In this document: in pieces, positions 3,681 to 63,219 of the stretch | Layout: each line of letters begins with the position of its first letter | Position numbering within the stretch: the first letter of the stretch is position 1 | NCBI GenBank assembly: GCA_951406725.2 | Contig: OX597819.1 | Span: forward strand, 125,054,001 to 125,118,000 | Direction of reading: 5' to 3' | Source: Octopus vulgaris | Taxonomy: Eukaryota | Length of the DNA: 64,000 nt | Notes under the pieces: generated by a model | Database searches by the model: none | Told to the model about the DNA's origin: nothing | The model's input: the letters and a program-made list of their open reading frames with translations, nothing else | Translations under genes and position numbers: made by a program

Positions 3681-3858
3681 AAAATTAAATAAGGGTAGAA
3701 ATTGATATTAATCAATTAAAACCAGTGGCCTAGCATATTTAAAAAAAAATCCGAAGATTTAAAATTTTATTACATACAAAATTTAGAGGATTTTAGTGGT
3801 CAATCCTCTAAATTTTGTATGTAAAAAAATGTTTAATCTTCGGTTTTTTTTAAAAAAC
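3681..3858 (-). mobile_element. Fold-back element in (TA)n, same family as 46096-46426
   Basis: Arms about 3751-3792 and 3802-3843; 3681-3790 is the reverse complement of 46318-46426. Confidence 0.8.
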
Positions 3859-4744: not shown

Positions 4745-5755
4745 ACATACTCCTGTATTTATCTGAGTGTTGAGTCCTTTGGGTGCTTGGATAAGATGTA
4801 GATGTCAAGTTGACCCAGGTTTCCTCCACGTTGGTCCTTGACATGTTGGTAGAGTATGGAGGACTGTTTTTTGTCATCATATTGTCTCAAATGTTCATTT
4901 AGTCGTTCCGCAGTGCTCCTAGATGTCTCCCCTATGTACATCATGTTCATGTCTTTACAAGCACCTTCTATGCATCTTATTCTGTAAACTACATTTCTAG
5001 TTCTACAGTTAATGCCAGGGCTAATCCTACTTACCGTGCAGTTATCATTGGTGCATGTGGTTTTCTCAAAGGAGTACATCCTACATAATTGCGACCTGAC
5101 AGAGTTCCCTGGCTTTTCAACAATCTTAATGTTGAGTTTGGTCTCCTTCAGAGCTGTCCCAAATCTCCAGGCTAGTTCTCCATGGGCTGTGGCCTCTACA
5201 AACATCACTCCTTGCTATTTGTTGGTTTTATACCACGTGTTTCCCCTGCTTGCTTTGTCAGGCAAGAAGTTGAAAACTTCTTTGGCCCATGACACTGCAT
5301 GGATCCTAAGTAAGGCATGTGTAAAATTTGAATGAAATTGGTTGGGTAGTTCTTAAGCTTTAGTGATGCACATACAGACACACACACACAGTTTTTATTT
5401 CTATATTTAGGGCAGGTATCACTGGTATCATTACATATAATTTATCTAATTTTTTTCTAGCACACCTGTATACTCAAACCCCATCTTCCTGATCATATCC
5501 AGAGAACTGCATGTAGTGCATGAAGTTCTGTATATGTTTTTTCATTTCATAGGTTTTGCATAGTGGGGACACGTTCATTGTCCTAAGTCTGCTATCAGTA
5601 TGTTAATTTTCATGTTGTGTAACAAAGCTGAGTTCTTGTGAACAACAAATATCAAGGAGTGATGTTTGCAGATGCCACAGCCCATGGAGAACTAGCCCGT
5701 AGATTTAGGAAAGCTCTGAAGGAGACCAAACTCAACATTAAGATTGTTGAAAACC
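4745..5755 (-). mobile_element. Penelope-like element fragment (RT thumb, Cys linker, GIY-YIG; Naiad/Neptune-like) with inverted duplication
   Basis: ORF 4759-5208 has NVVYRIRC..YIGETSRS..RLNEH; 5410-5642 gives HKNSAL..KINILIADL..FMHYMQFSGY; about 5645-5755 (+) is an inverted copy of about 5112-5225. Confidence 0.88.
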
Positions 5756-43607: not shown

Positions 43608-44000
43608 CTAGCAATATCGCCCGGCGTTGCTCGGGTTTGTAAGGGAAATAATTATATAAGCATTTTTAGAGATGTAAAGTATAATAGCCATCTCAATATG
43701 GCTAACCACAAAGGGGAGGGGTGTTACTGTAGCTTTTTACGTTCTGAGATTTAATAATAAATTTTAGAGAGTTACTTCCCTTATATATGTCAAAAATGGA
43801 TTAAAAATGGGAAAAATTGATGGTAAATTTTTTTTAAATCGTAGACTCATCGTAGACGCGCACTAATACCCAGAAGGGCTCGATATGAATCACGACTATA
43901 AGATACCCGGTTTTGGTTAAACTGCACCGCAAAATGTGGGAGTAGTTAGGAATCTAAATCGTAGGAGACAGACACACAACCTCACTTTTATATATAAAGA
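43608..44000 (-). mobile_element. Non-autonomous Helitron family 2
   Basis: A|TC start, cccgagcaacgccggg hairpin, CTAG|T end. Confidence 0.85.
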
Positions 44001-44100
44001 TTTCCTCTATTTACATAATATTGAGGTCTCTTTCTTTCTTTTGTTATCTTACTGTTTTTACCAATATACATATATATATATATATATAAATATATATATA

Positions 44101-44423
44101 GTTACAGAGATGTACTTGCATAGCAAGTGACTTGATCTGAGATCGTGTGCTGGAACGAAAACAGTTGCAGCGTTGAAGGTGTTTATAAGCCATTTAAGAA
44201 ACACACAAAAACCGTTACATTCACTTCAACATTTAAATTTAATTTGTCAAAATATTTTCGTCGCTTTGAGACCGCGACCTGTTAGCACGATATTTTTGTC
44301 AGTGAACAGGTCGTGGTCTCAAAGCGACGAAAATATTTTGGCAAATTAAATTTAAATGTTGAAGTGAATGTAACGGTTTTTGTGTGTTTCTTAAATGGCT
44401 TACAAACACCTTCCACGCTGCAA
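44101..44423. mobile_element. Hammerhead-bearing fold-back element (Penelope pLTR-like) in (TA)n
   Basis: Arms 44165-44283 and 44305-44423, 21-bp spacer; left arm has an extra tail to 44101; TA repeats on both sides. Confidence 0.85.
44295..44345 (+). ncRNA. Type I hammerhead ribozyme with G3-C8 core variant
   Basis: UUUGUCA-GUGAACA-G-GUCGU(GGUCUCAAA)GCGAC-GAAA-AUAU-UU-UGGCAAA: 7-bp stem I, 5-bp stem II, palindromic AAAAUAUUUU stem III. Confidence 0.72.
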
Positions 44424-44789
44424 TATATATATACACACATATATATATATGTATGTATGTATGTATGTGTGTATATGTGTATGCATGTATGTGTGTGTGT
44501 GCGTGTCTGTGCTTGTGATTGTCCTCCACCACTGCTTGACAACGAATGTTGGTTTGTTTACATCCCTGTCACCTAGTGGTTTGACAAAGGAAACAGATAG
44601 AATAAGTACAATGCTTACAAAAATAAAACTGGAGTTGATTCATTAAACTACAATTCTTCAAGGCATTGCCCCAGCATGGCCACAGACCAATGGCTGGAAA
44701 AAGCAGAAGAATAAAAGAATACATTCTCTGCTTTGGTCTTATGTTCAAGGCATGAGAAAGCTTGAGTTTACATGAGAAGGCCTAACAGA

Positions 44790-45810: not shown

Positions 45811-46095
45811 CTCTCTTTTTCTCTTCCCCTATAATTACATACACACACACACACTAAAGCAGATAAAGACTTGTGTGTGTTACACTCACGGAGTGGTTGG
45901 CGTTAGGAAGGGCATCCAGCTGTAGAAACTCTGCCAGATCAGACTGGGCCTGATGCAGCCTTCTGGCTTCCCAGACCCCAGTTGAACCGTCCAACCCATG
46001 CCAGCATGGAAAGCGGACGCTAAATGATGATGATGATGTATGTATGTATTTATGTATGTATGTGTGTGTGTATATATATATATATACACACACAC

Positions 46096-46426
46096 ACAAA
46101 ATTTAGAGGATTGACCACTAAAAGTGGACATCCTGTATGCTAGATATAGACGTCAGAATTGACATTTTCCACGAAAAACGTGTTATCAAGAAAAAATTCA
46201 GCAAAAAATCAAAGCTTTGGTTTTTTGCTGAATTTTTTCTTGAGAACACATTCTTCATGGAAAATGGCAGTTCTGACGTCTATATCTAGCATACAGGATG
46301 TCCACTTTTAGTGGTCAATCCTCTAAATTTTGTATGTAAAAAAATTTTTAATCTTCGGATTTTTAAAATATACTAGCCCACTGGTTTTAATTAATTAATA
46401 TCAATTTCTACCCCTATTTAATTTTA
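46096..46426 (+). mobile_element. Fold-back element with 119-bp arms and no spacer, in microsatellite
   Basis: 46096-46214 is inverted to 46215-46333 (centre AAAG|CTTT); unique tail then (TA)n. Confidence 0.85.
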
Positions 46427-53305: not shown

Positions 53306-53929
53306 CTAGAGTAAGCACAGAAATGTGAAACAAGATGGAAAAAAACAGTACTCAAATACCAGAGATAGAGTAATATGCTTTATTAATGAAATATGTATAT
53401 ATTAATAAAGAATATGTACATAATTGTTTTCTCACCTATAAGGCAAATCTTCAAAAATGACAGCTTATTGTATCTTGTAAACCTGCTCAATGAATTCTGT
53501 CCAACCCATGCAAGCATGAAAAAGTGGACATTAAAACGAGGATGAAGATGATGTGTGGATACCTGTGTCTGTCTGTATATGTATATATGGTCAGAAACAG
53601 CTGTTGGATTTGTAATACTTTTCTGCAGCTCCATTTCATTTGTATTCTATCCAAGTCAGACCTTTTTTTGTTTGTAAACAGAAATTCTTTGTCCCTTCCA
53701 TATATACATTTTTTGCATACATTTCTTGTATTTCAATGTATGAATATAGTAAAACCTCTTTATATAGTGATCTAACTTGCTTATACCTACATTTATTTCC
53801 TACGCATATGTAGATGAACAAATGAAAGGAGTTGTGAACATATTTAGTCAGAGTTACAAGCATTTAATAACAGGTTAACTCAACTCCACATTACTTAATA
53901 TTTCTTAGTTTTTAATATAACACATTATG

Positions 53930-59392: not shown

Positions 59393-59449
59393 GCCATCCA
59401 ACACATGCCAGCATGGAAAATGGATATTAAATGTTGATGATGATGATGA

Positions 59450-59808
59450 TCATCATCATCATCGTTTAATGTCAATTTTCCATGCTAGCATGGGTTGGAT
59501 GGATTGACCAGGGTCTGGGAAGCCCGGAGGCTGCGCCAGGCTCCAGTCTGATCTGGTAGTGTTTCTACAGCTGGATGCCCTTCCTAACGCCAACCACTCC
59601 GTGAGTGTAGTGGGTGCTTTTTATGTGCCAGGGGAGGCTGGCAACGGCCCCGATCAGTTGGTGCTTTTTACGTGCCACCGGCACGGAAGCCAGTCATGCT
59701 GGCGCTGGCATCAACCACGTACGGATGTTGCTTTTTACGTGCCACTGGCACAGGTGCCAGGGGAGGCTGGCAACGGCCACGATCGGTTGGTCGTTTTTAC
59801 GTGCCACA
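59450..59808 (-). mobile_element. RTE 3'-end repeat
   Basis: Family sequence; further copies near 3091, 4386, 10179, 13854, 17982, 18134, 45881 and 58863. Confidence 0.85.
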
Positions 59809-62950: not shown

Positions 62951-62990
<40 letters not shown>

Positions 62991-63002
62991 ATATAGAAGG
63001 AG

Positions 63003-63047
63003 TTCTACAGGACTAGTACTGTTTCATTCAAGAGAAATCTTCAGGAA
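63003..63047 (-). ncRNA. Type I hammerhead ribozyme (left arm of fold-back)
   Basis: Reverse complement of the right-arm motif; stem I UUC/GAA. Confidence 0.65.
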
Positions 63048-63048
63048 T

Positions 63049-63095
63049 CTTCCTGAAGATTTCTCTTGAATGAAACAGTACTAGTCCTGTAGAAG
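63049..63095 (+). ncRNA. Type I hammerhead ribozyme (right arm of fold-back)
   Basis: CUUC-CUGAAGA-UUUC(UCUU)GAAU-GAA-ACAG(UACUAGUC)CUGU-A-GAAG; GUA triplet; U-U at base of stem II is non-canonical. Confidence 0.75.
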
Positions 63096-63180
63096 CTCCT
63101 TCTATATAATAAATTAATTTTACTCTGCTATGTATTGAGTACCTTACTTACTGTGGTTAACCCCGAATCAACCCGGGACC

Positions 63181-63219
<39 letters not shown>

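Follow-up and report, generated by a model that had tools for sequence, protein, structure and literature searches.

Head-to-head hammerhead hairpins in the Octopus vulgaris genome as probable shortest insertions of a Hydra-type Penelope-like retrotransposon

The stretch of DNA analysed here, referred to as the window, comprises 64,000 nt of the Octopus vulgaris genome (assembly GCA_951406725.2, contig OX597819.1; C6:125054001-125118000 of genome G000 in our numbering). Close to its right end, set into (TA)n, lies a hairpin at 62984-63187 made of two head-to-head arms, each with a hammerhead ribozyme sequence and both belonging to a Penelope-like element (PLE) family that is here named family A. 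Its core is a perfect inverted repeat (63003-63047/63050-63094; 45 bp, 0 mismatches) around a 2-nt loop, and some 19 further pairs past a 1-nt indel extend it to ~64 bp (about 62984-63114), as a preliminary description of this DNA had stated. The whole element was predicted to fold as one hairpin (-98.3 kcal/mol, z -21.7). The hairpin is a young insertion of a new Hydra-type PLE family, and its structural class is already known.

Positions within the element were counted from the scissile bond of the long arm (+1 = 63092). The left (TA)n target (62955-62985) is followed by the short arm on the minus strand (62984-63050), delimited by inverted-repeat and motif analysis, which spans the leader from -45 to about +22 and has one G missing at +4 and one substitution near its end. 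The long arm on the plus strand (63047-63187) holds the leader, the hammerhead, a short-end site and a tail; 139/139 nt of it (63049-63187) were identical to the pseudo-long terminal repeat (pLTR) and tail of an intact element at locus L313 with a 713-aa open reading frame (ORF), which confirmed the suspected link to PLEs. Comparison of junctions showed that the 5' ends of both arms overlap by AGCT at the joint (63047-63050), with G>T at 63048, so that the apparent TC loop is a palindromic AGCT centre with one change, also present in the unrelated locus L190. Positions 63047 (+) and 63050 (-) are the fixed stop base discussed below and the inferred transcription start. An AATAAA at 63108-63113 (+), or +17 to +22, coincides with the short-end initiation/insertion site, where loose ends into (TA)n were found in contigs of runs X9, X10 and X18. 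The tail of about 70 nt (63114-63187, +), which in tandem copies runs on into the 5' untranslated region and the ORF, leads into the right (TA)n target (63184-63216).

A descriptor scan of the window gave 3 matches, namely the cores at 63053 (+) and 63044 (-) and one unrelated weak one, against a mean of 0.23 in shuffled windows (30 shuffles). On the long arm, descriptor and folding placed a type I minimal hammerhead at 63047-63097 (+), consisting of helix I, the CUGAAGA core, a 3-bp helix II opened by U10.1-U11.1, GAAA and helix III, with a predicted cut after 63091; the short arm carries its core at 63006-63044 (-), with a predicted cut after 63006. Helix I measures 4 bp in the right arm and 3 bp in the left arm of the window, compared with 6 bp in intact copies; folded singly, the two window arms both failed to reach the hammerhead fold. 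The earlier claim of a complete hammerhead on each arm stood for the cores and the cut after 63091, with qualifications for helix I and the fold of the single arms. A scan of the hairpin against Rfam up to E 10 returned no hammerhead family and only hairpin microRNA models below gathering scores. The intact family A leader folded helix I (6 bp) and helix III, no better than shuffles (z 0.09). An intact copy contains the type I core (CUGANGA, GAAA, NUH and three helices), with U10.1-U11.1 in place of the G10.1-C11.1 pair, a natural variant that keeps activity according to the accessible part of PMC3088659, and subfamily variation within the ribozyme fell on N7, loop II and loop III. Minimal PLE hammerheads have been described as cleaving poorly when alone (PMC4209133, in the portion available). 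The arms of family A hairpins hold uncut ribozyme sequence. As the prediction pairs each hammerhead with its own antisense copy, the self-cleaving transcripts envisaged in the preliminary description appear unlikely, and double-stranded RNA (dsRNA) is a possible product of these hairpins if they are transcribed. As a separate observation, three Hydra-type hammerheads (L053:1007-1060, the L319 leader and long copies of family C, another family of the window) have a 10.1-11.1 mismatch (U-U, A-A and U-U, respectively) and near-palindromic helix III segments.

The parent of the arms emerged from a protein search that recovered near-identical ORF copies, some with frames intact at 713 aa (e.g. L313 and L067), and at six loci the end of the ORF is continuous with the 3' region and hammerhead. 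Tandem copies gave the order leader, hammerhead, tail, ORF, a repeat-rich 3' region of ~3 kb and next leader, in a unit of about 5.2-5.4 kb; the ATG lies 182 nt after position -45, and 3,063 nt separate the stop codon from the next leader in L313. Judged by motifs, the single ORF encodes a reverse transcriptase (RT) followed by a C-terminal GIY-YIG endonuclease (EN), with DKT at 116, YRDD at 347, CxCX5C at 567, YIGMT at 603, CxxC at 667 and CxH at 695, which supplies the connection between tails and autonomous GIY-YIG elements that the preliminary description had proposed to look for. Pfam searches of three pieces of a broken family A copy gave no RT or GIY-YIG match, the intact protein lying outside that scan, and a motif search of the 713-aa protein for G.K[FY] (GxKF/Y) gave none. 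The marks of the Hydra clade set out in the accessible text of PMC8557442 are DKT for DKG, a CxCX5C linker, CxxC and CxH around EN E/N, and no GxKF/Y; family A shares all of these, along with the clade trait of a hammerhead in the pLTR and insertion into (TA)n. It differs in having RWR for RWK, RWK being retained in family E (44% identical), and in its unit length, against a length described there, without being made diagnostic, as generally <3 kb; the difference is due to the roughly 3-kb repeat-rich 3' region. By these motifs, family A is assigned as a Hydra-type Penelope-like retrotransposon.

Other ORFs had been considered as the autonomous partner, namely those in the long arms of L047 (Neptune-like, with Pfam RVT_1 and GIY-YIG matches), L041/L046/L050 (LINE-like) and L049, and were dismissed as nested insertions, since the L035-type ORF alone adjoins the 3' region without interruption in several loci. 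The material nested in the family A arms of L047, L041, L046, L049 and L050 comprises one Neptune-like ORF, LINE-like reading frames of ~1,000 aa and another Hydra-like ORF that carries a long insert rich in asparagine. The ~3-kb 3' region (L035:3760-6640) consists mostly of (TA)/(CA)/(TG)-type repeats, and since these form part of the element, the family spreads microsatellite-like DNA. Many copies among L051-L068 break frame at the same C run, leaving 506-aa open frames, through either a real change or an assembly homopolymer error.

Family A copies were found by sequence-pattern searches of G000; the loci examined were mostly the first matches listed on C1-C3, with later ones picked by junction type, and only a set of 110 arms and the genome-wide counts are unselected. 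The exact 26-nt core occurred 2,036 + 2,034 times and the ribozyme's 3' half 5,010 times, and tight head-to-head joints were present at no fewer than 892 places, a lower bound as exact flanks were demanded, which removed the concern that the arms might be single-copy. The asymmetry noted in the window, with one tailed and one short arm within (TA)n, recurred in 52 of 54 tight pairs, and solo arms were present in both lengths, short and tailed. Arm length formed a continuum from 20 nt to several kb: opposite cores kilobases apart enclose the same arms, lengthened by up to 2.5 kb, subfamily variants were common to long and short copies, and the shortest arms are the terminal 67-140 nt of the autonomous element. 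The earlier view of the hairpins as tiny non-autonomous elements was thus not sustained. A miniature inverted-repeat transposable element (MITE) or fold-back DNA transposon, for which matching terminal inverted repeats and homogeneous length would be expected, was rejected on the same unlike ends and continuous lengths. Among 50 loci listed, 13 joints were a perfect AGCT-centred palindrome or a one-base variant of it, 12 were one base shorter and 25 were diverse (hand count). At the tail end, contigs of 4/4 runs showed loose ends running into (TA)n, and those of runs X1 and X18 showed a break into (TA)n at -45.

A single G was lost at +1 or +4, beside the scissile bond, in 369 arms genome-wide; the losses were concentrated at those two bases, affected 15/92 short arms vs 0/48 long arms, and were not listed at a 2% share in contigs of 4 runs. 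The losses, the indel of the window's left arm (62999-63000 region) included, may represent either a cleavage scar or a hairpin-specific assembly error.

The 5' ends of the arms carried the main signal. Among 110 arms taken from C1 up to 40.2 Mb, 58 ended between -50 and -38, 10 further downstream and 6 at -139 to -51, and 36 ran on. Genome-wide, 1,977 of 4,654 arms (about 42%) stopped at the single base -45; 2,677 arms had the templated T at -46, 1,079 had A (in most cases perfect palindromes), 797 had G and 101 had C. TATAAA precedes the stop base by 29 nt in both family A subfamilies, and the scissile bond follows it by 45 nt. Where copies stand behind an A/T hexamer (n=98; hand count), 52 had G before the stop, 21 had T, 17 had C and 8 had A, and 20 loci chosen from the G rows read (TA)n-type sequence, G and leader, in 11 short and 10 tailed arms (21 in all). 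No shared bases were found upstream of the extra G among 100 listed of 286, and a short spliced exon 1 as its source was rejected on that account. In L1 and SVA, an untemplated G at full-length 5' ends has been read as a copied cap (PMC4859970, as far as accessible); pLTR promoters are known as well, with TATA and initiator (Inr) motifs in the part of PMC3846280 available and an internal promoter and intron in that of PMC2377424. Judging from scars left in the DNA, position -45 is likely the capped start of the element RNA.

In family E, the young form of a further family of the window, the stop was predicted beforehand at CC|ATTCT, which we take to be an initiator-like motif, 8 nt upstream of helix I; at this site 312 arms break off, and 1,714 continue past it. 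Both family A joint types recurred, and 15 of 30 family E loci had the G: 10 have the one-base-shorter joint, 4 are arms of two joints that have G on either side, and 1 is ambiguous.

The two arms of a hairpin agree in sequence while often differing in extent. Loop III was discordant between arms in 1 of 54 tight pairs, where 26 would be expected for unrelated sources; this concordance at subfamily sites indicated that both arms came from one source and ruled out two RNAs of unrelated source elements. In 50 tight pairs, the short-ended arm reached further 5' in 13 and the tailed arm in 13, with 24 ties, and in L037-L039 the ORF was reached by the short-ended arm and not by the tailed arm, a difference of kilobases. 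Each arm thus often holds sequence that is missing from the other, a pattern that snap-back of one cDNA cannot produce. Two cDNA ends reading GAAGCT(C) would explain both common joints, AGCT:AGCT giving the palindrome and the extra C after a one-base bulge giving the shorter joint. Strand-change joints were not listed in the contigs, which are unable to show their absence. A comparable activity has been reported in vitro for the Poseidon element PAc, in which both target strands were extended from two internal start sites bounding the tail, on an uncleaved RNA template (PMC11167929).

The findings suggested, with a probability that we place at roughly 65%, that the hairpin represents the shortest class among the insertions of a Hydra-type PLE, in which two cDNAs are copied to the predicted capped 5' end of the RNA and joined end to end in cut (TA)n. 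The arms are the element's own leader, with a fixed stop at -45, often with an untemplated G, and two fixed 3' sites at about +22 and about +95 (tail end). RNA polymerase II would start at -45, 29 nt below TATAAA, making the hammerhead the first structure of the mRNA, and the ribozyme would sit centrally in the hairpin because it opens the transcript. The RT-endonuclease would cut both strands of (TA)n, and each 3' end would prime one cDNA, one per start site. With priming in the 5' leader, each cDNA would meet the end of the RNA after 67 or about 140 nt, often gaining a C opposite the cap. The cDNA 3' ends could then anneal via AGCT, yielding the perfect palindrome, or via the extra C after a 1-nt bulge, yielding the second commonest joint, and fill-in would close the gap. 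Inverted arms of kilobase length would arise when a cDNA was primed on a downstream copy of the pLTR or jumped to that copy. The outcome would be a promoterless dead-end copy, with its ribozymes predicted to be locked in the hairpin.

Several observations weigh against this account. Among the A/T-flanked family A copies, 17/98 have C rather than G, and about half of the family A G class (11/30 loci and similar joints) could draw its G from the opposite arm. The dinucleotide at -45/-44 is also AG. Later deletions at palindrome centres, together with gene conversion, can blur both arm length and concordance. In family E, only 4/86 A/T-flanked copies have G before the stop, and the TATA-like motif is weak; the family E leader starts with AT, able to pair with the target, and if AT microhomology led to loss of the C, this would account for the scarcity of G. 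In family B the hot spot, some 14 nt upstream of helix I, reads equally well as an initiator or as a 3' splice site; the family B G counts (682 R vs 138 Y) were dropped as cap evidence because that G is templated. Joints of family C show no focus and are spread out, for the most part downstream of the ribozyme. The start site and the cap are predictions drawn from scars in the DNA.

Some of these points feed the suggestion that RNA processing or an RT stop (a splice acceptor beside helix I, exonuclease trimming as far as the helix or a bound protein, or a pause) fixed the 5' end and that an ordinary non-templated C was added, which would leave twin priming and annealing unchanged. The family A stop is the first base of helix I and coincides with AG, the family B hot spot is preceded by a branch-point-like motif, a pyrimidine tract and AG, and an intron of Drosophila virilis Penelope ends at helix I according to the accessible part of PMC4209133. 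However, the sequences upstream of the G share no exon bases, in family E the stop falls 8 nt upstream of helix I and not on an AG, a structural block would be expected 3' of the helix and not past its last base, and the spacing from TATAAA is 29 nt; we regard this origin of the 5' end as unlikely. Snap-back or self-priming, in which one cDNA or antisense transcript folds on a palindrome and copies itself, has been proposed for head-to-head Penelope junctions (PMC3846280, in the part available) and would suit both the short palindromes at joint centres (AGCT in family A, AATT in family E) and the agreement of the arms at subfamily sites. A copy of a tail-primed cDNA cannot, however, pass its template's 5' reach, as the short-ended arm does in the 13/50 pairs and, by kilobases, in L037-L039; in 8/11 offset-33 joints the arm with the G is the short one, solo short arms exist, and neither palindromes with no loop nor joints in which a 1-nt spacer separates two G-bearing arms appear sterically suited to it. 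It is accordingly a poor candidate, and the data favour a sense, probably capped, uncleaved RNA copied twice over self-priming on an antisense template.

A self-propagating tiny non-autonomous ribozyme family, retrozyme- or MITE-like, with the hairpin as its unit, would account for the two joint types that repeat identically (25/50 listed loci) and for one family B copy found at several places. Against it, the remaining 25/50 joints are diverse, arm lengths grade without a break into the kb range, long and short copies share subfamily variants, the upstream TATA region is absent from the hairpin, and the repeated family B copy shares both 260-nt flanks and is therefore a passenger in a larger repeat, so that such a family is highly improbable. 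Fold-back artefacts of long-read assembly are hardly credible: the listings for contigs of 4 runs contained no hairpin joints and the single-base G losses are restricted to short arms, as artefacts might show, but the outer ends are unequal and family-specific, unique flanks lie on both sides, fillers occur at joints, the minimum of 892 loci lies on chromosome-scale contigs, and both 3' ends, as well as the -45 break into (TA)n in X1 and X18, are visible in contigs from other runs. A more elaborate scheme borrows from long terminal repeat (LTR) elements, in which target-primed RT would begin in the 5' leader and make a strong-stop cDNA to the cap, the downstream hammerhead would cut the transcript to leave a 3' end identical to the 45-nt leader (an R region between the start site and the scissile bond), the cDNA would jump to this end and go on to copy the body, and the hairpins would be failed jumps. 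If true, it would give the PLE hammerhead a function and unite pLTRs, tails and inverted arms. Read-through arms had no G scar (3 non-T bases in family A and 4 matches in family E, none of them G), so strand transfer is unsupported, and no jump is needed for long arms, which are explained by priming on a downstream tail; we hold the scheme to be doubtful.

In LTR retroelements, priming near the RNA 5' end yields minus-strand strong-stop DNA, a short cDNA ending at the cap. The proposed family A cDNAs differ from it in being primed by target DNA, made twice per event and left in the genome. In L1 twin priming, two cDNAs copy different parts of the RNA, whereas both family A cDNAs would copy the same 5' leader, giving a near-perfect palindrome. 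The two systems are alike in two primings on one RNA, microhomology joining and an extra G at full-length 5' ends (PMC4859970, accessible part). Poseidon PAc resembles family A in its two internal start sites bounding the tail, the extension of both strands and the uncleaved RNA template (PMC11167929), and differs in that its ORF starts inside the ribozyme, the family A ORF lying 182 nt after the inferred start; the main text of PMC11167929 does not address the RNA 5' end, cap or inverted-joint formation. Recently described non-LTR retrozymes (bioRxiv 10.64898/2026.07.22.740005, as far as its text is accessible) are likewise short, PLE-derived and equipped with a type I hammerhead, but form head-to-tail tandem arrays, whereas sampled short family A copies are head-to-head or solo and tandem units are full 5-kb elements.

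The closest counterparts are complex insertions of endonuclease-positive (EN+) PLEs, which the accessible parts of PMC8557442 and PMC3846280 describe as a pLTR with an adjacent inverted 5'-truncated copy and a tail at one end; pairs of opposite-strand hammerheads 100-700 bp apart have also been noted before (PMC4209133, same limit). The hairpins share with these insertions the head-to-head arms, the one-sided tail, the palindrome at the joint, the (TA)n target and the pLTR hammerhead, and differ in that ~42% of family A arms stop at one base with an untemplated G and in a tail of ~70 nt vs the 30-40 nt published. Because an inverted truncated copy with one tail has already been published, the hairpin is a known kind of product. 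The published reading of such palindromes, in the text available, is self-priming on an antisense template, as opposed to the twin cDNAs suggested here. The new point is likely the joint, where arms ending on one base with a G mark can be read as twin strong-stop cDNAs of a capped leader. A literature search yielded no account of a cap G, a fixed stop or twin priming in PLE insertions; it barely covered subscription papers and supplements, so that an earlier mention is possible. The origin of tandem and inverted PLE structures and the role of their hammerheads are open questions in the field (PMC11167929 and the accessible part of PMC8557442). A young family with about 2,000 arms on one base offers a base-resolved record of the template 5' end and the joining step, exact transcription start sites are predicted, and intact ORFs from two families are provided. 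Many hundreds of near-perfect 60-bp hairpins left in the genome are potential dsRNA substrates.

The other hairpins of the window belong to three further PLE-type families, in keeping with the earlier suggestion of a multi-family system. The architecture claimed to recur at 44101-44423, 46096-46426 and 3681-3858 was confirmed as tailed and short inverted repeats, but a ribozyme was present in one copy only, as a variant in the right arm of 44101-44423 rather than a central hammerhead throughout. The fold-back at 44101-44423 (inverted repeat 44165-44423) belongs to family B, has a tailed left arm and a short right arm, and sits inside a larger multi-copy repeat. By descriptor it holds a variant type I hammerhead (44294-44345, +) with a G3:C8 core, an extra base before helix II and a palindromic AUAU helix III. 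Family B had 2,579 exact matches in the genome; its swap of the C3-G8 pair to G3:C8 was present in 47/63 arms (loci L071-L100), with a 7-bp helix I, and U3-A8 is named as a natural covariation in the accessible part of PMC3088659. One locus (L241) joins family B to the end of a GIY-YIG ORF, and window positions 43840-44680, the fold-back with both 260-nt flanks, recur at L076, L088, L089, L091 and L092.

Family C (134 exact matches; Hydra-type as judged by L127) provides the fold-back at 46092-46426 (inverted repeat 46092-46337), whose joint lies downstream of the family's hammerhead, and that at 3681-3858 (inverted repeat 3743-3851); neither copy has a ribozyme, the hammerhead of the family standing about 200 nt upstream of the short end. 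The weak recurrence reported at 53306-53415 (-) does have a short inverted end, but is a tail remnant of Hydra-type family D/E, 91% identical to the tail of an intact element in L319, with no ribozyme; the young form of this family has many intact 711-aa Hydra-type ORFs, 44% identical to that of family A. The earlier proposal was right in placing the joint close to the ribozyme, but fold-back priming at the ribozyme is not supported: in family A, 45 nt separate the joint from the scissile bond, it lies 8 nt upstream of helix I in E and about 14 nt upstream in B, and in C it is scattered downstream of the ribozyme. The ribozyme lies at the hairpin centre because of where the copied RNA ends, and is no rule of such hairpins. 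Elsewhere in the window, a broken endonuclease end of another PLE, with a cysteine linker and YIGETS and related to the ORF end in L107-L109, occupies 4762-5214 (-), and a local inverted repeat of 54 bp with 6 mismatches lies at 59394-59502, with SINE-like ends around (ATC)n.
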